Assembly: GCA_963743885.1 (NCBI GenBank)
Contig: CAVURJ010000001.1
Coordinates: 204,949-268,948 of the forward strand
Direction of reading: 5' to 3'
DNA: 64,000 nt
From: Candidatus Moraniibacteriota bacterium
Lineage (GTDB): Bacteria > Patescibacteriota > Minisyncoccia > Moranbacterales > UBA1568
A program made the translations under genes and the position numbers. Of this stretch, positions 3,939 to 63,113 are shown piece by piece. The notes beneath the pieces were generated by a model. The model saw only the letters and a list, made by a program, of their open reading frames with translations, was not told the DNA's origin and ran no database searches. How positions within the stretch are numbered: the stretch's first letter is position 1; each line of letters starts with the position of its first letter.

Positions 3939-4029
3939 TTACCAAACGAAGTGAGTGAAACGAAAGTTAACTTTCGTTTCCGAGCGCAGTGCGGGTAAAA
4001 TCGGTAAATAACCGTTATTTTATAAATCG
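3939..4029 (+). repeat. structured two-hairpin element, copy 1 of 3 (TTACCAA..GTGAGYGAAA-stem-TTTCCGAGCGNAGYGC..GTAAAA-stem2); candidate small RNA or MITE
   Basis: Shared primary sequence with 32301-32460 and 46577-46665. Stem 1 is gaaacgaaag/ctttcgtttc and stem 2 is cggt/accg; both stems show compensatory changes across the copies. Confidence 0.55.
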
Positions 4030-4030
4030 T

Positions 4031-5386
4031 ATGCTTTTCAACTTAAAAAAGCCATCCGTGGCGCAAATGGATAATAGTCAAATGCTGGATCTTCTTTCTG
4101 AGAGGAGTTCGGAAATTTTTGATTTTGTAAAAAAGGTTTCTAACGCTGAGTATTTATATTGGGATAATTTTCGCCATAAGGAACCATCGCCAAAAAACAT
4201 TTCTAAAGAATCACTGTGGATGCTTACGAAATTCATCAGAAAGGCACAATCTATCAAAACACCTATTAAGGATAAGGGCGGCAGTGTTTTTACTTGGTCG
4301 AAGCTGCAGTATTTCGAGCAGTTTTTCCATGAGCTTGATATGAATACCGGCGGAGGATTATTTGTTGAAAGCTCGGAAGTAAATAAAGCCAATAAGCAGA
4401 AGCTTATTTCCAGGGGGATAATGGAAGAGGCTATCGCCTCTTCCCAATTGGAGGGAGCTGCTACAAGCCGGCAAGCAGCCAAGAAAATGCTACGTGAGGG
4501 AAGAAAGCCGAAAAATCGATCCGAACAGATGATCGTGAATTCGTATCTTTCCATGAAATCGATTGAGGAAAATTATAAGGATAGAAAAATGACGGTAGAT
4601 TTGCTATTGGAGATGCATAGCATGATTACGTCGGATACTCTTGATTTAGAAGGAGAAAGGCCAAGGTTAAGAGGAAAAAAAGATCCAATCGTTGTGTCGG
4701 ATGATGCGACTGGTATCGTATATCACGAAGGACCGAATATGGCCTTTGTAAAAAATGAGCTTGAACGATTGGTTGAATTCGCGAATGATGAATTGGACAG
4801 CGGAGAGTTTATTCATCCAGTCATCAAGGCTATCATGCTTCACTTTTGGATGGGATATCTCCACCCGTTTACTGATGGCAACGGGCGGTTGGCTCGCCTT
4901 TTGTTTTATTGGTATCTTATGAAAAAAGGATACTGGGCTTTTGCGTATTTGCCGATTTCTAAGGTAATCAAGCGTTCACCAAAGCAATATATTATGGCGT
5001 ATGTGTACAGCGAACAGGATGATAACGATCTCGCATATTTCATAAATTACAATATCCAGAAAATTAAGCTTGCTATGAGAGAGTTTTTGGAATATAGAGA
5101 AAAACAATCAACAATGAATGTCCAGATGCGCAAGATATATGGTGTTCGATATCATTTTAATGATAGGCAGATACATTTGCTCCAGTATCTTTATGGGGAT
5201 GCTGACGGAGAAACGACGTTGTTTTCCCATATGAATGTGAACCAGGTATCAAAGATGACCGCGAGCAATGATTTGAAGAACCTTGTGAAAAAAGGATTTC
5301 TTATCCGTTCTAAGCGAGGAAGAAACGTGTTTTATTCTGGAACAGAGAAGATCGAAGAATTGTTCGAAACAAGAAAGAATGGATGA
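4031..5386 (+). CDS. Fic family protein (putative AMPylase/toxin)
   Basis: Canonical Fic motif HPFTDGNGRLARLL. The gene sits in AT-rich DNA. Start is taken at the ATG after the structured element; the ORF is open from 3989. Confidence 0.85.
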   Translation: MLFNLKKPSVAQMDNSQMLDLLSERSSEIFDFVKKVSNAEYLYWDNFRHKEPSPKNISKESLWMLTKFIRKAQSIKTPIKDKGGSVFTWSKLQYFEQFFHELDMNTGGGLFVESSEVNKANKQKLISRGIMEEAIASSQLEGAATSRQAAKKMLREGRKPKNRSEQMIVNSYLSMKSIEENYKDRKMTVDLLLEMHSMITSDTLDLEGERPRLRGKKDPIVVSDDATGIVYHEGPNMAFVKNELERLVEFANDELDSGEFIHPVIKAIMLHFWMGYLHPFTDGNGRLARLLFYWYLMKKGYWAFAYLPISKVIKRSPKQYIMAYVYSEQDDNDLAYFINYNIQKIKLAMREFLEYREKQSTMNVQMRKIYGVRYHFNDRQIHLLQYLYGDADGETTLFSHMNVNQVSKMTASNDLKNLVKKGFLIRSKRGRNVFYSGTEKIEELFETRKNG

Positions 5387-5418
5387 TGCTTGGCGTCGCA
5401 CCACTTCGGAAGGTCTAG
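5382..5418 (+). repeat. relic duplicate of the last 12 codons of pcrA (MMLGVAPLRKV*), a direct repeat of 3745-3781
   Basis: gatgatgcttggcgtcgcaccactt is identical at 3745-3769 and 5382-5405. The downstream codons are near-identical and carry their own TAG stop. Confidence 0.7.
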
Positions 5419-5472
5419 GAGAGAAAAAGAAAAGGCGGCTTCGGGTGAAGCCGCCTGGAGGTTTTGCAGATG

Positions 5473-6786
5473 TTACTGCGTGTCGATGCCGATCTCTCTC
5501 GGGTCGGTGATGAGGGTATTGCCCCATGCGATGCCTTTGAATCGGGGCAGGCCTTGTGGGAATGTATCGCGCATACGCATGATGAGAGAGCTGACGCGTT
5601 TTCCGGCAAGCAGTTTTTCGAGCTTACCCTCGTTTGCTGTGGCCGGGTAGTCCTTGATACGCATAGGTTTCCCGTATTCCATGTCCACGATCCGGATATG
5701 GGTCGCTTGGTGCACATGCGAACTGACGAAGGCGACTCCGTTGATGCGAGTGAGCAAATAAGCGACGCGGTGGGCTTTTTTCGGCGGTGGAGCCATCCGG
5801 AGGTAGCAGCCGTATTCGGGGAAGTTGTGTGCTTCAAGTAGCAAGCCGATCTTTTCGACGGCTATCTGCTTGAGAACGGCGCCCATCTGGATGTTGCAGG
5901 GCGTGAGCACTTTCGCTTCTACGATGGCGGCGCTTCCGATCGGATATATCTTCAGGTCTTCCATGGCGATGACACCTTGCATGTCCTCGACTGTTTTTTT
6001 GACCGCCGACTTCAGATCATCGCCGAGACTCTTCTGGATGAGCACGGAGTATCCTTTTTCGCCGAGCTCGTAGGCTACTCGGAGGATGAGGATGCCGGCC
6101 GCCAATCCGAACGGGTATTCGATCCAGGGAGCCTGGAAAAAGTACTCGCCGGATATCCCGATGAGAGCAGCGCTCTCGATGATGCCGTCGCTTCGCGTCT
6201 CTTGGCCGTCGGCTACGATGGATGGCTTTTGATGCTTGTGGCCGACCGCCATTTGGATCCTTGAGGCGACGAACGAGAGGGCGATGCTTGTCAGCACGAT
6301 GCATGCCAATACCGGGTACCAGCCGTTGAAAATAGCCGGGTCGGTATGCGTTTCGGGGACGAGGACGGAAGGTAGTGCTGCGAAGGCAGCTTTGGGGATG
6401 GAGTCCGCGAAGAATGTCTGTGCGATCCCTATGCCCGAACTACAGAAGATGGAAAGCCCGATTCCTCCGAGCAGGAACCCGATCAGGAGGACGAAGATGC
6501 TTTCAAGATTGCGCCGTCCGAACGGGTAGTCGCTGTTGCCGGTATCGCGGGCCAGTGATACGACGAGTATCACGAGGCTGGCTTCGAAGATATCCGAAGT
6601 ATTGTGGATGCCGTCGGCCCCTACGACGAGGGAACCGGCGAGCAGTCCGCCGACACCGCCTTTCAGGACGACCTTGAAGATGTACATCGTGATGACCGCC
6701 AGCATTACGCCGTGTGGCGTGAAGAGCGGCGGGATCCTTTTTTCGAGCCAGCTGAGCCAGCCCGAAGCGTATGGATGCGTTGACAT
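5473..6786 (-). CDS. cation diffusion facilitator (CDF) family metal efflux transporter with an extra ~130-aa C-terminal domain
   Basis: TM region with LVVGADGIHNTSD and HKHQ..DG motifs, plus a CDF cytoplasmic domain (GVIAMEDLKIY...LEAHNF). The extra C-terminal domain is of unknown type. Confidence 0.65.
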   Translation of the reverse strand: MSTHPYASGWLSWLEKRIPPLFTPHGVMLAVITMYIFKVVLKGGVGGLLAGSLVVGADGIHNTSDIFEASLVILVVSLARDTGNSDYPFGRRNLESIFVLLIGFLLGGIGLSIFCSSGIGIAQTFFADSIPKAAFAALPSVLVPETHTDPAIFNGWYPVLACIVLTSIALSFVASRIQMAVGHKHQKPSIVADGQETRSDGIIESAALIGISGEYFFQAPWIEYPFGLAAGILILRVAYELGEKGYSVLIQKSLGDDLKSAVKKTVEDMQGVIAMEDLKIYPIGSAAIVEAKVLTPCNIQMGAVLKQIAVEKIGLLLEAHNFPEYGCYLRMAPPPKKAHRVAYLLTRINGVAFVSSHVHQATHIRIVDMEYGKPMRIKDYPATANEGKLEKLLAGKRVSSLIMRMRDTFPQGLPRFKGIAWGNTLITDPREIGIDTQ

Positions 6787-19240: not shown

Positions 19241-19927
19241 ATGGGAGTAAATCTAAACGAAAATAAACTCCGAAAAGCTGAAGTAGAGGCTTTCAAAAAT
19301 GGCATCAGGCTACATTTTGATGCCATTAAGCTTTTTGAGAATAAATCGTATCCCAGCGCCTATGCCCTATCGGTTTTATCTTTGGAGGAATTCGGAAAAC
19401 AACGTCTAATTGATGAAATACTCTTTCGTTACATTGAGCATAAGGGAGAATTTGAAAACGATAAACAGTTTACTGATTTTTGTAAGGATTTTGAAAACGG
19501 GATGTTAAGTCATTCTTTGAAACAGGGATTTGCTGTATCAGACGATTTTCCGTTCATGAGGGGACGTAACAGAATGCAGAGAGGATTTTTATATAAAATG
19601 TTTAATCACAAGAATGGAAGGAAATTGATTGATGGTTGGAAAATGAGATCAATTTATGTCGGGTTTGAACACAATAGCTTAAAAGGGAGAATACAAACAC
19701 CGCTAAGCTTTATTAAGAGAAAAAAAGCACAAGATCAAATAACCGCCATAAATGATTATTTAGTAAATTTTATAATTTACCTTAGACAAGGCAGATGGAC
19801 GCTCGATAATGAAAATCTTATGAGGTTTTATAACACCAATCTTTTGAATAAACTCGTTGATATTTGGAAGAACAGACATGAGGACACTAGAAGCAGGCTA
19901 GATACCTTTTTGAGTTCTCGGAAGTAA
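19241..19927 (+). CDS. AbiV-like abortive-infection protein (tentative)
   Basis: AIKLFENKSYPSAYALSVLSLEEFGKQ is reminiscent of the AbiV-family N-terminus. First gene of a low-GC island. Confidence 0.3.
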   Translation: MGVNLNENKLRKAEVEAFKNGIRLHFDAIKLFENKSYPSAYALSVLSLEEFGKQRLIDEILFRYIEHKGEFENDKQFTDFCKDFENGMLSHSLKQGFAVSDDFPFMRGRNRMQRGFLYKMFNHKNGRKLIDGWKMRSIYVGFEHNSLKGRIQTPLSFIKRKKAQDQITAINDYLVNFIIYLRQGRWTLDNENLMRFYNTNLLNKLVDIWKNRHEDTRSRLDTFLSSRK

Positions 19928-20050
19928 TAATTGGTTAATGATTTTTTTGCTAATTTTTTGTTTGAATTGATTGCGTGATATAGTAAAGGCAGTTGACAAA
20001 GGTAAGAGATTTTTATTATAGGTAGCTAATTAAGGCCATAAAATATTTTT

Positions 20051-20563
20051 ATGATAAATGTAAATAAAATAAACGATATATTAGGATTTTTTTCGGACAA
20101 TGTTTCGGATCTAACTGTTACTAAGATAATGAAGTTATTTTATTATGTTGATTTTGTTTCTTTTGCAGAAAAAAATACTTCTGTTACAAACGATGTTTAT
20201 TATAAGCTTCCTTACGGTCCAATTCCCTCTTTTATTAAAAACGAGATCAACACTCTGACTTTCAAAACCATGCTTGGAGCAGAGGCTGGAGATTTGCAAA
20301 TTTCAAAAAATTTCGGAGTGGAACAGAAAAAGATAGGCAAGTATGATGCTTATGTTGTTAAAAATAATGGAAAAAAGAGTTCTCTTGAGAACTTATCTGG
20401 TTATGAGGTAGAACTCATAAAAAGGATATTAAATAAGTTTGGAAAGAAAACGGCAAAGGAACTAACTGATCGTACTCACAAAGAGAAACCATATCTTTTG
20501 ACAAATGAAAATTCAATTATTGATTATAAACTTGCTAGTTTTCTTAATACCAGTTCTATTTAA
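20051..20563 (+). CDS. Panacea-domain (DUF4065, SocA-like) protein, a putative antitoxin
   Basis: TKIMKLFYYVDFVSFAEKNTSVTNDVYYKLPYGPIPSFI matches the Panacea/DUF4065 pattern. Confidence 0.55.
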   Translation: MINVNKINDILGFFSDNVSDLTVTKIMKLFYYVDFVSFAEKNTSVTNDVYYKLPYGPIPSFIKNEINTLTFKTMLGAEAGDLQISKNFGVEQKKIGKYDAYVVKNNGKKSSLENLSGYEVELIKRILNKFGKKTAKELTDRTHKEKPYLLTNENSIIDYKLASFLNTSSI

Positions 20564-20568
20564 CAAGT

Positions 20569-21117
20569 ATGGGAGACTACGGGTTTGGCGATGTTTATGA
20601 TTGCAGAAATGTTCCAGAAGTGGAACATTTTATTGTTATATTAGGATTTCAGGAAATTAAGGGGAAGAAGATTATATTTTATGAAAAAGTAACTTCACGA
20701 GTTTATAAAGCCTTCAAGAAACTCAGTGATTTTTTTGAGGGTAACTGTAATGGGCAATGCAAGAAGTTCAAGCATAATTTCAAAGATAAGACCCCCATTT
20801 TCCATTACGGGAAATTATGCTTTACGTTATTTTTAGATAAGGACGAAAACTATCTCAATGAAGATAGCATGGTTGTGATAAAGGGTGATCCAGAGAAGAC
20901 GGACGAAACTATTATGGAGCAATGGATTAAGGCCGGACTAGCTAAATCGAAAACGAGAATTTCAAATGTAGACATTTATAAGTTAATGGCTATATTAAAT
21001 AACTCGGATAATTTAAGTAGTCCAGTAATCCATCATATCCGTCTCGCCTTTAGTGGGGTTGATAAAATGATAAAGATGCAAAACCTTCAGAAGGCTAGTA
21101 AGAAAAAGAAGAAATAG
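20569..21117 (+). CDS. hypothetical protein, candidate toxin partner of the Panacea protein
   Basis: Starts 6 bp downstream of the Panacea gene on the same strand. No recognisable domain. Lys-rich tail. Confidence 0.4.
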   Translation: MGDYGFGDVYDCRNVPEVEHFIVILGFQEIKGKKIIFYEKVTSRVYKAFKKLSDFFEGNCNGQCKKFKHNFKDKTPIFHYGKLCFTLFLDKDENYLNEDSMVVIKGDPEKTDETIMEQWIKAGLAKSKTRISNVDIYKLMAILNNSDNLSSPVIHHIRLAFSGVDKMIKMQNLQKASKKKKK

Positions 21118-46063: not shown

Positions 46064-46160
46064 TATTTGTGTGGGCAGGGAGACCCGCCCGCATGACTCG
46101 CGTCAGCGTGTCGGGCGGGGACTCGCCAGTCAAAGGCTGGGCCGCCTTTGGCGGAAACTC

Positions 46161-46246
46161 TGGTGCCGGGGAGAGGACTTGAACCTCCATGAGATTGCTC
46201 TCGTCAGGTCCTAAACCTGATGCGTCTACCATTTCGCCACCCCGGC
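46161..46246 (-). tRNA. tRNA-Leu (anticodon TAG), CCA encoded
   Basis: Reverse complement reads GCCGGGGTGGCGAAATGGTAGACGCATCAGGTTTAGGACCTGA...GGAGGTTCAAGTCCTCTCCCCGGCACCA. The anticodon loop is TTTAGGA and there is a long variable arm. Confidence 0.8.
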
Positions 46247-58474: not shown

Positions 58475-58656
58475 CAGATCCTTTCTCTTGACGATAGCCA
58501 CTAGATAGGGTATGATTTTGTAACCCTGATCAAGGCGTTCCCGCGCCTTTTTTGGTTCCGAATAGGAATCATCCTGTTATCGACTCCGAGGTCGTTGAGA
58601 TTCGAGGAAAGCTTGTCGAAGGGCTCTAAATTTTTTGAACTGTATTTAGTTAGAAT

Positions 58657-58746
58657 ATGGAAATTAGGAATATCGCTATTATTGCGCACCCCAGCACTAC
58701 AACGCTTTGCGTTGAGTGCGGGGCAGGCGTCTTTTATTGCTACTAA
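58657..58746 (+). CDS. 29-codon upstream ORF whose first 11 codons mimic the bipA start ([11 protein letters not shown]...), ending 5 nt before the bipA ATG
   Basis: atggaaattaggaatatcgctattattgcgcac differs from atggagattagaaacattgcaattattgctcat (58752-) only at synonymous positions. Stop TAA at 58744-58746. Confidence 0.35.
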   Translation: MEIRNIAIIAHPSTTTLCVECGAGVFYCY

Positions 58747-58751
58747 ATATA

Positions 58752-60538
58752 TGGAGATTAGAAACATTGCAATTATTGCTCATGTAGATCATGGGAAGAC
58801 CACGCTAACTGATGCTTTGATGCGCCAGACTGGTATGGTGACCGCTGAGGGTGTGTCGATGGATTCGAACGCGCTCGAGCGTGAGCGTGGCATCACGATC
58901 TACGCCAAGAACGCCTCGCTCAATTACAAGGATACGAAGATCAATATCGTCGATACCCCGGGACACGCCGACTTCGGATCGGAAGTGGAACGTGTGCTTC
59001 GCTCGATCGACTCGGTCGTGCTCGTCGTTGATGCGCAGGAAGGCCCGATGCCACAGACCCGCTTCGTGCTCAAGAAGTCGCTTGAGCTTGGACTCCGACC
59101 AATGGTCGTGATCAACAAGATCGACAAGCCGGCGGCCCGCCCGGAAGAGGTGAAGGAGATGGTGTTTGAACTTTTCCTCGATCTCGGTGCGACCGATGAG
59201 CAGCTTGATTTCAAGGTGGTCTATGCGATCGCCCGCCAGGGTATCGCGAAACTCACGCTTGAGGAAGAGGGGAAAGATCTGTCGCCGCTTCTTGATACGA
59301 TCCTTGAATGCGTGCCGGCTGCAGCGCATGATATTGAAGCGCCGCTCCGCGCTCAGCCGTTCAACCTCGGCTATGACAATTTCGTCGGTCGTCTGGCCAT
59401 CGCGCGCATCTACGAGGGGAAGATGAGGGTGAATGATCAGGTGCTGATTCGTCATATCTCAGGGAAAAGCGAATCCGGCCGCATCGTGAAACTTTTCACA
59501 TTCCGCGGACTGGAACGCGTCGAGACGGAAGAGGTGCAGGCGGGCGACATCGCGATGATCGCGGGTCTCACCGGCATCGAGATCGGCGATACGATTTGCG
59601 TGTCTCCAGAGCAGGAACTCCTGCCGGTGATCGCGATCGATGAGCCGACTATTTCCCTCAATTTCGTCGTCAATGACTCGCCGTTCGCCGGGCGCGAGGG
59701 CAAGTTCGTCACCAACAAGCAGCTTCGCGAGCGGCTTGAAAAGGAGCTTGAGATCAATGTCGGCCTCAAGATCGATTTTTCTGATGATCATTACAAGGTC
59801 TATGGCCGCGGCGAGTTGCATGTCGCTATCCTCCTCGAGAATATGCGCCGCGAAGGATATGAAGTCCAGGTCTCCCAGCCGCAGGTCATCATCAAGGATA
59901 TCGACGGCGTGAAGTCGGAACCGTTCGAGGAAGTGACGGTCGAGTGCCCGATGGAGGTCTCCGGTACGGTCATTGAGAAGATGGGCAAAAGGAAGGGTAT
60001 CATGATGGAGATGAAAGAAGGCTCCGGCGGCTATACTCGCCTCATCTTCGAGGTGCCGACCCGCGGGCTCCTCGGTTATCGTGGCGAGTTCATGGTGGAC
60101 ACCCGCGGCGAGGGGACGCTCTATACCCGCGTGCTCGGTTTCCGGCCGTATGCCGGCGAGGTCAAGAAGCGCGATACCGGATCAATGGTCTCGATGGCGA
60201 CCGGCAAGGCGCTCGCCTTTTCTCTCAACAATCTCCAGGAGCGCGGTGTGCTCTATGTCGCTCCTTCGACGGAAGTCTATGAAGGTATGGTGGTTGGCAA
60301 TGTGACCAAGGGGACCGATATGTCGGTCAATCCGATCAAGGGTAAGGCGATGAGCAACATGCGTTCGTCGGGCGCGGATGAAGCCATCAAGCTCGTGCCG
60401 CCGATCGAGATCACTATCGAGCGTGGTCTCGAGATCATGCTCGAAGACGAATACTTGGAGATTACTCCGCACAACGTCCGCCTGAGAAAACAGCTTCTTA
60501 CCGAGACTGACCGAGTGAAATCAGCTCGTAAGAAATGA
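58752..60538 (+). CDS. typA: translational GTPase TypA/BipA
   Basis: [37 protein letters not shown], and EF-G-like domains. Confidence 0.9.
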
Positions 60539-60592
60539 ACGGGCAGCTTCCCGCCCGTATCGCTACGCGAAGCGTGGCGGGCGGGCTTACTG

Positions 60593-60631
60593 AAACCGAC
60601 CGCGTGAAGGCGGGCCGGAAGAAATGAGGTA
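60593..60631 (+). repeat. relic copy of the last 13 codons of bipA ([13 protein letters not shown])
   Basis: cttactgaaaccgaccgcgtgaaggcgggccggaagaaatga compared with the gene end cttaccgagactgaccgagtgaaatcagctcgtaagaaatga. Confidence 0.55.
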
Positions 60632-60679
60632 AGAGACAAGAGGCATGAGTATCGTGCCGCGTCCCCAGAAGGGGCGCGG

Positions 60680-60717
<38 letters not shown>

Positions 60718-60842
60718 CTTATCTCTTATGTCTTACCTCTTGCTTCTTCTTTTAATCTTACCTCATACCCCATCTCCAATCCCGTGGTATACTAAAAACA
60801 TATCATCATAGCTAAGAAATTTTTGGTTACGAACTTTCTTTT

Positions 60843-60949
60843 CTGTCATCCCCGCGAAGGCGGGGATCCAGAAGAATGCCTTATTATGAGGAACTTGGAT
60901 TCCCGCCTTCGCGGGAATGACAACTACAAACGTAGTTTCGTAATTGAAG
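60843..60949. repeat. two palindromic elements of the GGATCC...ATGACA family plus an AGTTTCGTAATTGAA tail
   Basis: ctgtcatccccgcgaaggcggggatccag and ggattcccgccttcgcgggaatgacaactacaaacgtagtttcgtaattgaa. Perfect stems with covarying sequence. Confidence 0.55.
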
Positions 60950-60966: not shown

Positions 60967-61248
60967 ATGGAAAGCCTATCCTTCGTGGCAGTCGTGCATG
61001 CTGGATCAATCAGCGATGCGCCGAGAGTAGTGACGCTTTTCGGTAACGTCCTTGACTTTCTGTTGTCGATTGCCGGCATCATTGGTATAATTGCGTTGGT
61101 AGTCGCCGGCAGTCTCTATCTTACTGCGGGCGGGGACGTGCGCCGCATCGCGCTTGCCAAGCGAGCTGCTGTTGCGGCAATTGTTGGTGTTGCTGTTGTT
61201 TTTAGCGCGTGGATTATCATCGGTCAGATAGTGGCATTCTTCGTTTAG
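60967..61248 (+). CDS. T4SS pilin-like protein (TrbC/VirB2-like, CPR type)
   Basis: Two TM helices flanking YLTAGGDVRRIALAKRA. Confidence 0.55.
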   Translation: MESLSFVAVVHAGSISDAPRVVTLFGNVLDFLLSIAGIIGIIALVVAGSLYLTAGGDVRRIALAKRAAVAAIVGVAVVFSAWIIIGQIVAFFV

Positions 61249-61291
61249 AAGATGTCCGATAACATACAAAACGAGAAAGGAGGTGAGAACT

Positions 61292-61660
61292 ATGAATTAT
61301 TTCAAGAACGCTCTCTACACGGCTTTCTCAGTCGCTTTGGCCGCCGTTCCGGCAGTCGCGAGCGCTCAGTGGGGCATTGGCAAAAGCAATGCAGCCGCTT
61401 CCGGACTGCCTGATGATACCATCTACGGGATCATCAATAGGACTATGAACTGGCTCCTCATGATCCTCGGTTTCATCGGCATCATCGGCTTCGTCATCGC
61501 TGGCATCCTGTATCTCACCGCCGCCGGAGACGAAGATCAGATTGGCAAGGCGAAGACTGCCATGATGTATTCCATCATCGGCATCATCGTCGCTCTCATG
61601 GGTTTCGTCATCATCAGAGCTGTCGAAAGCTGGCTCTCTGCAGGCGCATTCACTTTCTAG
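61292..61660 (+). CDS. T4SS pilin-like protein, paralog 2
   Basis: Signal peptide MNYFKNALYTAFSVALAAVPAVASA, then GILYLTAAGDEDQIGKAKTAMMYSIIGIIVAL. RBS aaggagg is upstream. Confidence 0.6.
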   Translation: MNYFKNALYTAFSVALAAVPAVASAQWGIGKSNAAASGLPDDTIYGIINRTMNWLLMILGFIGIIGFVIAGILYLTAAGDEDQIGKAKTAMMYSIIGIIVALMGFVIIRAVESWLSAGAFTF

Positions 61661-61736
61661 TACAGGAAGTCTCTGTGAAAGCTCTCCCGCCCTTTCGGGC
61701 GGGATTGTTTTTTGTCTTAGAAAGGGGTATCCTGAA
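61415..61736 (+). repeat. 322-bp segment identical to 61927-62248 (3' two-thirds of the pilin gene plus its terminator)
   Basis: Exact identity at a 512-bp offset. The N-terminal-encoding parts of the two pilin genes are about 80% identical. Confidence 0.85.
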
Positions 61737-61803
61737 GAGAGGAATCTTAATGGGGTGTTTCGACACGCCGGATAAAATACAAACCGGAAAGGAGGTGAGA
61801 AGT

Positions 61804-62172
61804 ATGAACTTCATCAAGAACGCCATGTACGCTGCTTTTGCAGCTGCTTTGGCTGTCACTCCATCCGTAGCGGGTGCACAGTGGGCCGCTGGAAAGGCCA
61901 ACGCGGCCGCTTCCGGACTCCCGAACGATACCATCTACGGGATCATCAATAGGACTATGAACTGGCTCCTCATGATCCTCGGTTTCATCGGCATCATCGG
62001 CTTCGTCATCGCTGGCATCCTGTATCTCACCGCCGCCGGAGACGAAGATCAGATTGGCAAGGCGAAGACTGCCATGATGTATTCCATCATCGGCATCATC
62101 GTCGCTCTCATGGGTTTCGTCATCATCAGAGCTGTCGAAAGCTGGCTCTCTGCAGGCGCATTCACTTTCTAG
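61804..62172 (+). CDS. T4SS pilin-like protein, paralog 3 (C-terminal 2/3 identical to paralog 2)
   Basis: MNFIKNAMYAAFAAALAVTPSVAGA signal peptide. RBS aaggagg is upstream. Confidence 0.6.
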   Translation: MNFIKNAMYAAFAAALAVTPSVAGAQWAAGKANAAASGLPNDTIYGIINRTMNWLLMILGFIGIIGFVIAGILYLTAAGDEDQIGKAKTAMMYSIIGIIVALMGFVIIRAVESWLSAGAFTF

Positions 62173-62282: not shown

Positions 62283-63113
62283 ATGTCTATGGCGCGCGCT
62301 TTTCGCATGTCGGCATTTTTGGCAGTTTTGTCGCTAGCGGGTTTTCCGTTGTCGTTGGTATCCGCTCAGCAGCCAGGAGGGACTTCTGGGGAAGATTGTA
62401 CGGGTATGGGGACAGGGTATTTCTGTACCCCGATGCTTACATGCAATGGTACCAATGAGATAAAATCAGTGAGCGGATGTTCCAAATCTGAAGATGCATG
62501 CTGCGGACCAAAAGCAAGCGGAGGCACCGACTCGGGATCTTCATCGAGCGGTGGTTCATCTTCGTCATCCTCTGGTGCTTCTAGTGGAGGGGTGGCTTGC
62601 ACGGTTGCTCCGTATGGGAAAGTCGGCATATGTGGCGGTTCGACGTGCGCCGGTATCGCGGCGGCTGACGCTGTATGTGGTGCGTGGCCGGCGAATAAAT
62701 GTTGTTATATCGCTAGCTCCGGAGGCGCTTCTTCAGGAGGCGCTCTTGGTGGCGGAGCTTCCAGCTCCGGAGGAGGTGCCGCCGCCGCAGGAGTCGATTG
62801 TCCTGGCGGCATCATCAAGGGTGGCGTGTGTTTTCCTGGTGGTACCGGGCTGCCTGATCCGGTGGGCGGGATAGGCGAAGTGCTGATGAACCTTATGGAT
62901 TGGTTGCTCGGTATCTTCGGCATGCTCGCTGTCATCGCGTTTGTCATTTCGGGCATTCAGTATCTTCTTGCAGCCGGTGACGAACGTCAGGCCGAGACGG
63001 CGAAGCGAAATATGAAGTATTCCATCATCGGTATCGCGGTGGCGCTTTCGGCATATATCATCATCGACGCGATCAGCTGCATGTTCGGTTCCGGAGGATT
63101 CTTTATCTGTTGA
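62283..63113 (+). CDS. pilin-like protein with a long Cys/Gly/Ser-rich N-terminal extension
   Basis: Signal peptide, about 180 aa rich in C, G and S, then a pilin domain FGMLAVIAFVISGIQYLLAAGDERQAETAKRNMKYSIIGIAVAL. Confidence 0.55.
   Translation: MSMARAFRMSAFLAVLSLAGFPLSLVSAQQPGGTSGEDCTGMGTGYFCTPMLTCNGTNEIKSVSGCSKSEDACCGPKASGGTDSGSSSSGGSSSSSSGASSGGVACTVAPYGKVGICGGSTCAGIAAADAVCGAWPANKCCYIASSGGASSGGALGGGASSSGGGAAAAGVDCPGGIIKGGVCFPGGTGLPDPVGGIGEVLMNLMDWLLGIFGMLAVIAFVISGIQYLLAAGDERQAETAKRNMKYSIIGIAVALSAYIIIDAISCMFGSGGFFIC

Follow-up and report, generated by a model that had tools for sequence, protein, structure and literature searches.

How does a conserved gene come to stand between second copies of its own two ends? 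The question is raised by bipA/typA in a stretch of 64,000 nucleotides (nt) of DNA from a Candidatus Moraniibacteriota bacterium (the window; coordinates without a label are positions in it, while L- and P-numbers are the labels used here for bipA loci and for proteins). A preliminary description held that relics of the 5' and 3' coding ends of bipA flank the gene, and offered either replacement by a foreign allele recombined inside a resident copy or a translationally coupled leader open reading frame (ORF). Relics do flank it, and they adjoin the ancestral promoter and leader on one side and the ancestral terminator on the other. Comparison with related loci shows directly that the outer copies are the displaced native gene ends, that the working ends are diverged patches, and that the two ends are independent events and not one gene swap. 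The explanation favoured here, with a probability of about 0.45, is that two separate patches of ~90 nt were laid on bipA by Campbell-like recombination with related alleles.

On the 5' side an upstream ATG is followed by 11 codons for the same peptide as the start of BipA; the copies share 26 of 33 nt, and all seven differences are synonymous and at third positions, as had been claimed. The two ATGs lie 94 nt apart, not the 95 nt first given; 61 nt separate the copies, and their longest identical run is ~8 nt. On the 3' side the last 13 codons and the stop are indeed repeated, beginning 47 nt past the bipA stop instead of 55, and 32 of 42 nt agree, with eight of the ten differences at third positions. 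The working 3' end reads ...VKSARKK before its stop, unlike the relic, and this tail was absent from the 134 related proteins compared. A scan for nearby peptide repeats with diverged DNA, covering ~1.04 Mb of related loci and the window, recovered essentially only bipA ends, so the duplicated ends are not due to chance. They are also not an artefact of one assembly, since the independent Logan assembly ERR12035942 holds an identical BipA, the same 276-nt gap between the upstream solute-binding protein (SBP) gene and bipA, and the same ORF of 30 amino acids (aa) over the 3' relic.

Which copies are native can be read from the relatives. The closest loci found by search belong to Candidatus Moranbacteria, within the Candidate Phyla Radiation (CPR, Patescibacteria). 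Closer relatives came from the protein database, with BipA identities of 98.5% aa (L160), 95.3% (L161 and L162) and 93.1% (L163); scans of genomes and metagenomes found no bipA above 91% aa identity and none with the spacers as native flanks. All four carry a single clean gene; in L160, L161 and L163 the sites are empty at both ends, and the genes continue directly into a 3' end of the relic type. In L160 almost the same terminator follows, and the end of its gene therefore matches the 3' relic of the window (37/42 nt) and not the working end.

The insertion units themselves comprise 94 nt at the 5' end (58690-58783, between codons 11 and 12) and 89 nt at the 3' end (60497-60585). In both, the palindrome sits inside the relic copy, not between the two copies, a feature missing from the preliminary description; beyond it stands a 7-9-nt echo of the gene sequence across the insertion point, and the diverged gene end of the unit is joined in frame to the gene body. 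The 5' order is native leader, codons 1-11, a hairpin of 34-39 nt, an echo of codons 12-14, a further 8-13 nt like those that directly precede a bipA start, and the working ATG; the 3' order mirrors it, with the working end and its stop, ACGG, the echo GCAGCTT, a 36-nt palindrome and the relic. The 3' layout is the same in L013, where the echo (GTCCGGCT) matches at 8/8 positions and stands immediately before the hairpin. The echo of codons 12-14 matches at 8/9 positions in L141 (P=0.003), 7/9 in L119 (P=0.024), 6/9 in L103 and 5/9 in the window.

Table 1. Features of the bipA locus and of its two insertion units (window positions)
Feature	Position	Strand	Remarks
Sigma-70-like promoter of the ancestral bipA leader	58488..58516	+	TTGACG-17-TATGAT, consensus scan; same arrangement upstream of bipA in syntenic relatives
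Terminator-like hairpin and T-run within the leader	58532..58555	+	AAGGCGttccCGCGCCTTTTTT; conserved upstream of bipA in relatives; BLAST match to the L005 upstream region
5' relic, displaced native codons 1-11	58657..58689	+	Runs on from the ancestral leader; in sister pairs, found where the gene of the sister actually starts
Upstream ORF (uORF), 29 codons	58657..58746	+	Relic, hairpin and echo; TAA at 58744-58746, in a frame other than that of bipA, 4 nt short of its ATG
5' GC-rich hairpin insert, 39 nt	58690..58728	+	In frame, between relic codon 11 and the echo; homologous inserts at the same junction
Decayed echo of codons 12-14	58729..58737	+	GTCTTTTAT (gene GTAGATCAT); homologous column
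UTR', short untranslated stretch of the patch	58738..58750	+	Resembles native bases before the bipA start; like the ~10 nt that precede the L160 ATG
Surrogate codons 1-11, working bipA start	58751..58783	+	With 58690-58750 forms the 94-nt 5' unit
bipA/typA coding sequence	58751..60538	+	595 aa; 98.5% aa identity to L160
Surrogate 3' end, start of the 89-nt 3' unit	60497..60538	+	Absent from L160, L161 and L163
ACGG, then GCAGCTT, which echoes the 7 nt to the left of the point of insertion	60539..60549	+	Gene ACAGCTT at 60490-60496; L160 GCAGCTC
3' GC-rich palindrome, 36 nt	60550..60585	+	CCCGCCCG...CGGGCGGG; belongs to a dispersed family
3' relic, displaced native last 13 codons and stop	60586..60627	+	aa-identical, 37/42 nt, to the working 3' end of L160; same downstream DNA
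Ancestral intrinsic terminator of bipA	60656..60690	+	GCCGCGTCCCCagaaGGGGCGCGGC and T-rich run; nearly identical in L160

The gene between the patches encodes a translational GTPase of the BipA/TypA family. GTP_EFTU, GTP_EFTU_D2, EFG_C and BipA_C domains are recorded for the identical protein (PF00009, PF03144, PF22042, PF00679, PF21018), which is 70-98% identical to hundreds of annotated TypA proteins. Relatives keep the order methyltransferase (MT), SBP, bipA and pilin-like genes of a type IV secretion system (T4SS), and bipA is therefore in its ancestral, syntenic place. Its GC content at third codon positions (GC3) of 0.71 is typical of the window genes and gives no compositional sign of a foreign gene body; GC3 is low (0.35) over the first 20 codons, which is not decisive.

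A scan of 159 bipA loci recovered 5' duplicates in L103, L119 and L141, which have only the 5' structure, and 3' duplicates in L013 and L046, which have only the 3' one. These carriers are scattered over the BipA tree, each with relatives whose site is empty: L131 for L141 (95% aa identity in BipA), L108 for L119 (90%), L166 and L167 for L103 (95-96%), L088, L089 and L017 for L013 (94-97%), and L054 and L124 for L046 (91%). In every such pair the outer copy is located where the real gene end of the sister is, and in the two 3' cases it is the relic, not the working end, that matches the sisters. Co-conversion tracts are not resolvable at the 80-84% nt identity of the older pairs, which leaves L103 against L166 and L167 as the only resolvable comparison. 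Against L167, L103 matches at 24/33 nt in the working start, at 27/33 in the relic and at 92% over the whole gene, while the first 33-60 nt of the gene are only 73-77% identical to the sister; the patch of L103 is therefore short and foreign, and its gene body native. L141 has a rare glutamine at position 2 (Q2) in both 5' copies where its sister has glutamate (E2), which implies a closely related donor, gene conversion or co-selection. The preliminary description had allowed for a merely neutral scar, should all relatives prove to lack the relics and the upstream ORF be untranslated; the nearest relatives do lack them, but with the 5' structure in three other CPR lineages and the 3' structure in two, the insertions recur at bipA and are a repeated recombination product, not a one-off scar.

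Across the four lineages with paired 5' copies, 21 of 21 nt differences are synonymous, whereas random single-base substitutions in the 11 codons would be synonymous in only 19% of cases. Nonsynonymous changes are found in 0/44 relic codons 1-11 vs 4/12 echo codons (Fisher p=0.0013), so the outer relic is fresh, refreshed or selected and the hairpin-borne echo is old. The N-terminal 11-aa peptide is, on the other hand, nearly invariant across ~150 bipA genes, any two of which share a mean of 27.2/33 nt over codons 1-11. Given this background, the synonymous-only pattern shows only that both copies evolved within working genes, and the two 5' copies of the window, at 26/33, are as different as unrelated alleles.

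The 5' breakpoint is identical in the window, L103, L119 and L141, lying after codon 11 with GCN-CAC on its left and CCC on its right, and the inserts of L103, L119 and L141 (34-39 nt) are homologous hairpins. The hairpin model has a main stem of 13 pairs and an outer helix of two, 15 pairs in all, of which five show compensatory changes; 94.9% of its cells are paired, vs 25-39% when partners are slid. By a count from the sequences, the hairpin is 72-74% identical between lineages whose BipA proteins are only about 70% identical. The covariance model matches only these four loci in the ~1.1 Mb searched (the window, the 159 loci and L160-L163), and as the hairpin never stands upstream of a relic-free bipA, it is not simply the ordinary 5' untranslated region of a donor. 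A search of the region against Rfam at a permissive threshold found no family for either the 5' or the 3' hairpin, and the junction AAYATHGCNATHATHGCNCACCCC had zero matches in viral contigs.

The ancestry of the locus changes along its length. Upstream, L160 pairs with L161 and the window stands outside: in the MT and SBP proteins, aa identity is 88.5% and 82.4% between L160 and L161, vs 74% and 71% between the window and L160 and 73% and 72% between the window and L161. BipA and the downstream DNA instead pair the window with L160, BipA differing at nine aa positions between these two, at 28 between the window and L161 and at 29 between L160 and L161, and the 3' relic, intergenic region and first pilin gene being 77%, 66% and 66% identical in nt for the same three pairs. 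Identity at four-fold sites between the window and L160 is 0.68 in bipA vs 0.41 in the flanks (p=3e-10), and a regression over other Moranbacteria pairs predicts from the flanks, by hand calculation on the fit, a BipA divergence of ~10%, against the observed 1.5%. A recombination breakpoint thus lies between 58415 and 58741, in the intergenic region that also holds the 5' patch. L160, with which bipA and the downstream DNA share their ancestry, has a 3' end of the relic type, so the 89 nt of the 3' patch are an insertion in their own right and do not mark the other boundary of an import. Of the proposed gene replacement there survives recombination with a related allele that left the resident ends behind, in keeping with the conflicting phylogenies of upstream flank and bipA; what falls is a single import, given the relic-type 3' end and same downstream DNA of L160 and the single-ended cases elsewhere.

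The Campbell-like explanation favoured here would work as follows. An intact bipA would undergo a single Campbell-type crossover, beside the palindrome, with a gene end that bears a palindrome, derives from a related allele and is present as a short circle or tandem repeat; the order of each unit (palindrome, echo, untranslated bases, gene end) is what one such crossover gives. The working end copies would come from related genomes, and the composite would then move among relatives by ordinary homologous recombination, with the highly conserved codons 1-11 and the P-loop codons as its two homology arms; at each transfer a fresh gene end, that of the recipient itself, would be left outside as the relic. 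Transcription would still start at the old promoter (58488-58516) and end at the old terminator past the 3' relic, and BipA would be translated from the second ATG (58751). These routes of patch formation and spread are inferred from sequence comparison, and several points weigh against them. No patch-bearing donor allele was found in the relatives searched, so the donor is hypothetical; the small circle or tandem intermediate is likewise only postulated. Homologous recombination between lineages ~70% identical in BipA is hard to credit, and the 72-74% identity of the hairpin across such lineages suggests a constraint on it that passive hitch-hiking does not explain. The aa conservation of relic codons 1-11 could equally stem from selection or gene conversion, as the Q2 of L141 might illustrate; the 3' case of L046 has a 30-nt filler with no clear member of the palindrome family; and a Campbell crossover leaves the first formation of the structure without explanation. 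Hairpin conservation across deep lineages and the unchanged relic codons thus keep alive both a regulatory leader and a mobile mini-element as alternatives.

The uORF bears on the first of these. It has the 29 codons of the preliminary description, with a stop 4 and not 5 nt before the bipA ATG. A consensus scan found no promoter-like site in the 5' patch, so that transcription presumably comes from the old promoter. In 4/4 carriers of the 5' structure the uORF terminates close to the working ATG, at most 12 nt before it and at most 10 nt after it, a placement with a joint P of ~0.07 against shuffled spacers. Coupling to bipA is a geometric possibility that would suit termination-reinitiation, and a regulatory role of the 5' patch is likewise hypothetical; under the Campbell-like explanation the uORF would be a by-product that may deliver ribosomes in this way. 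Programmed bypassing of the T4 gene 60 type was considered, as the histidine codons CAC and CAT could match as take-off and landing sites, and was rejected: CCC, not a stop, follows the take-off codon, CAC recurs 5 nt into the insert, and a full ATG with 11 codons is supplied. Conserved translation of the 3' relic was rejected as well, the ORFs over these relics differing in frame and start between lineages.

It could be hypothesized that the uORF and conserved hairpin form a selected leader for cis-acting translational control of bipA, in which ribosomes on the uORF open the hairpin, reach their stop next to the bipA ATG and start anew, with selection keeping the uORF start and the hairpin. 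Such a role would account for the lack of nonsynonymous change in the relic codons (0/44) despite saturated synonymous divergence (26/33 and 25/33 vs 27.2/33), for the covariation of the hairpin and the 72-74% identity of the inserts between deeply diverged lineages, for the closeness of uORF stop and main ATG (-10 to +12 nt in 4/4 lineages) and for Q2 in both L141 copies. Neither ATG has a Shine-Dalgarno sequence, which would also suit a leader, but this carries no information, because only 15 of 47 window ORFs, about a third, have one; the stop position, too, falls short of significance. The arrangement occurs in only four of ~165 bipA loci and none of the four carriers shares it with its nearest relatives (90-98% aa identity), there is no rationale for mimicry of the N-terminus, and the mirror-image 3' patch, with its inconsistent ORFs, cannot be a leader. 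On balance we regard a selected leader as unlikely, if well within consideration.

Slightly harder to accept is an active, site-specific, self-patching mini-element, that is, a non-autonomous hairpin cassette of ~90 nt mobilized in trans (e.g., by an HUH/Y1 transposase or a homing nuclease) that brings a replacement gene end, so that the host gene survives. The identical junction at a P-loop codon boundary in four lineages with empty sisters, the constrained sequence and structure of the hairpin, the crossover that always adjoins it and the dispersed 3' palindromes all speak for such an element, with precedents in the gene-end duplications of fungal mitogenomes (PMC6279837) and in the islands that restore the 5' end of dusA (PMC8409611). 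Yet inspection of ORF lists, with no Pfam or other domain search, showed no evident nuclease, integrase, transposase or other recombinase ORF in the window region or beside the five other carrier loci; the 5' hairpin was found only at bipA and never in a second copy; the 3' junctions do not lie at one position in all lineages; the target site is still intact in the working copy; and the untranslated bases and codon choice of the patches resemble the host lineage, which points to close-relative donors, not to a travelling element. A broader proposal, that the ~90-nt units are a previously undescribed non-autonomous mobile cassette of CPR bacteria, appears possible but doubtful; it would insert by hairpin-directed single crossover at conserved gene ends (in bipA, the P-loop boundary between codons 11 and 12 and the final ~14-20 codons) and supply a replacement end in frame, so that its arrival would do no harm and it could spread between lineages. 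Replacement in one step, with a foreign bipA and its flanks (62 nt upstream, 47 nt downstream) entering by a single illegitimate double crossover, would leave relics at both ends and a bipA phylogeny in conflict with the upstream flank, but it is contradicted at the 3' end by L160, and the single-ended cases, the hairpins inside the relics with their echoes and the same junction in four lineages make it improbable. A target-site duplication by a transposon or a MITE (transposable element of the miniature inverted-repeat type), followed by neutral decay of the unused copy, or else an assembly chimera, is the least credible and very improbable: direct repeats do flank a palindromic insert and palindromic elements are clearly mobile in this genome, but the differences cluster at third positions (7/7 and 8/10, with 19% synonymous as the random expectation), the hairpin lies 7-9 nt inside one repeat and not between repeats, the spacing is reproduced by an independent assembly and the structure recurs in unrelated ones.

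Other known routes to duplicated ends fit no better. Insertion at an integrase attachment site was rejected, with only 61 nt (5') and 47 nt (3') between copies and ~8 nt as the longest shared run. The terminal duplications of homing endonucleases were rejected too, as the space between the copies is too short for an ORF and the flanking ORFs are the syntenic SBP and pilin-like genes. Transposon or MITE target-site duplication was set aside on the position of the hairpin and the third-position bias just described. A diversity-generating retroelement was dismissed as well: bases of every type are affected by the 3' differences, most of which are synonymous, and no ORF of reverse-transcriptase size is adjacent.

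The 3' palindrome belongs to a family (CCCGCCCG...CGGGCGGG) with five copies, spread over four lineages, whose outer and inner stems are conserved, the other members being at 46084-46119 of the window and in L013, L029 and L078. It is thus dispersed in the manner of repetitive extragenic palindromic (REP) sequences, unlike the 5' hairpin, which is found only at the bipA junction. The copies at window 46085-46118 and L029 7086-7127 are nearly identical (~29/30 core nt), although the BipA proteins of the two are only ~73% identical, and several palindromic insertions distinguish the window from L160 within 2.3 kb. Four BipA proteins of 626 aa (P0048, P0052, P0053 and P0057) carry an in-frame insert of 19 aa (PPRLGEAGSPTSETSEGRR) in the G domain after AKNAAIFY, which looks like a translated GC-rich palindrome. 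Taken together, these insertions, near-identical distant copies and the in-frame insert indicate that small palindromic DNA is mobile in these genomes. A tRNA-Leu 3' relic beside the palindrome at 46084-46119 (tRNA-Leu at 46161-46246, minus strand) was considered and is not significant (P=0.17).

Parallels exist for single traits of the bipA patches. GC-rich palindromic repeats include in-frame insertions, such as the palindromic elements (RPEs) of Rickettsia, and REPs and MITEs are not known to bring a diverged duplicate of the coding end that they interrupt. The 3' palindrome resembles them as part of a dispersed, sequence-conserved CPR family, and some bipA genes have an in-frame palindrome-like insert; the 5' hairpin differs in being single-copy as far as searched. 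REP-like and MITE-like repeats have been reviewed (PMC3184786, PMC2229807). In islands that restore gene ends, such as those at the 5' end of dusA and SGI1 at the 3' end of trmE (PMC8409611), the native end is likewise left as a relic and a diverged functional end arrives to keep the gene intact, but these islands span many kb, carry an integrase and have relic and restored end at their opposite ends, whereas the whole bipA insert is 89-94 nt, contains no recombinase gene and has its palindrome abutting the relic. Fungal mitogenomes have partial C-terminal duplications of host genes beside free-standing homing-endonuclease ORFs (atp6 and cob of Endoconidiophora; PMC6279837), where diverged gene-end copies also mark an invaded conserved terminus and the working copy is the one joined to the gene; at bipA, in contrast, no endonuclease ORF, whether intact or degenerate, separates the copies, the 5' end is affected as well as the 3' end, and the setting is a bacterial chromosome. 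The 50-nt mobile insertion in the coding sequence of phage T4 gene 60, tolerated through a translational trick (bioRxiv 10.1101/2022.08.31.505936; PMC2988022), is similarly short, structured and placed in a conserved coding region of a functional gene, with a hairpin that begins at the last codon before the interruption; ribosomes hop there, while the bipA patch supplies a second start and 11 codons, so bypassing is neither needed nor likely. Homology-facilitated illegitimate recombination in natural transformation (PMC6382021 and the literature cited there) anchors DNA of relatives by homology on one side and resolves the other imprecisely, and can explain both duplicated ends and conflicting phylogenies, but varied joints would be expected, unlike the 5' joint, which is the same in four lineages and always at the foot of the homologous hairpin.

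If the Campbell-like explanation holds, a conserved housekeeping gene in reduced CPR genomes has been repeatedly remodelled at its ends by tiny palindrome-bearing insertions, and the patches are dated footprints of recombination between related uncultured lineages; it would also raise the question of a hairpin-guided, self-repairing mechanism of insertion. Were the uORF and hairpin under selection instead, they would constitute a leader of an unusual kind, one that repeats the N-terminus of the protein under its control. In practical terms, the patches create small spurious ORFs, such as the 30-aa ORF over the 3' relic called in the public assembly, and may mislead start-codon calls.

The surroundings of the gene offered further observations. 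The leader arrangement of the window (58488-58555) is also found in the Moranbacteria loci L001, L003-L008, L010, L015, L016 and L022, where no more than ~15 nt separate a sigma-70-like promoter from a terminator-like hairpin (AAGGCGnnnnCGCC) with a T-run, and the start codon comes 30-100 nt later; it could represent an attenuator or a short leader transcript, or else the SBP gene upstream may have its terminator inside the bipA leader. In L164 and L165 (1480-1590 in each) and in P0194-P0240, gene callers extend BipA by ~28 aa (MNSSICVSRS...) across a whole clade, over conserved promoter and leader DNA that has no in-frame stop, which looks like an annotation artefact. Long BipA calls (616-625 aa) were considered as pointers to more relic loci and discarded, those of L164 and L165 being promoter read-through with no relic. 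Directly 3' of the bipA terminator lies a (CTTT)n microsatellite (60681-60716), where L160 has only a short T-run. The bipA of L141 is without the last ~10 codons relative to L131, and L131 has a 1.6-kb insertion after bipA (4780-6373), absent in L141 (3509), with a 434-aa ORF and a GC-rich palindrome at its end (6323-6366).

Downstream of bipA, a MITE-like palindromic element of ~130 nt (~60800-60940, arms 60844-60870 and 60896-60922, TGTCATCCCCGCGAAGGCGGGGATCCA ... TGGATTCCCGCCTTCGCGGGAATGACA) stands between the promoter of the pilin genes and the first of them; it is absent there in L160 and L161, and L054 has four related arms. The small T4SS-pilin/TrbC-like genes are arranged in tandem at 60967-62172 (and 62283-63113), and those at 61283-61660 and 61675-62172 encode identical C-terminal halves of ~85 aa, which points to recent duplication or gene conversion. 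In L078 (1936-2357), two partial 5' copies of a tRNA-Gln gene (~1936-1950 and ~2075-2140) precede the intact gene (2284-2357); each abuts a GC-rich palindrome, and between them lies a 40-codon ORF (MKHFVYILISQK...) with a putative likeness to the N-terminus of GIY-YIG nucleases. Elsewhere in the window, two low-GC islands (19241-21117 and 3989-5386; GC 0.29-0.39, GC3 0.25-0.43, vs a GC3 of 0.55-0.80 in other window genes) may be recently acquired genes.

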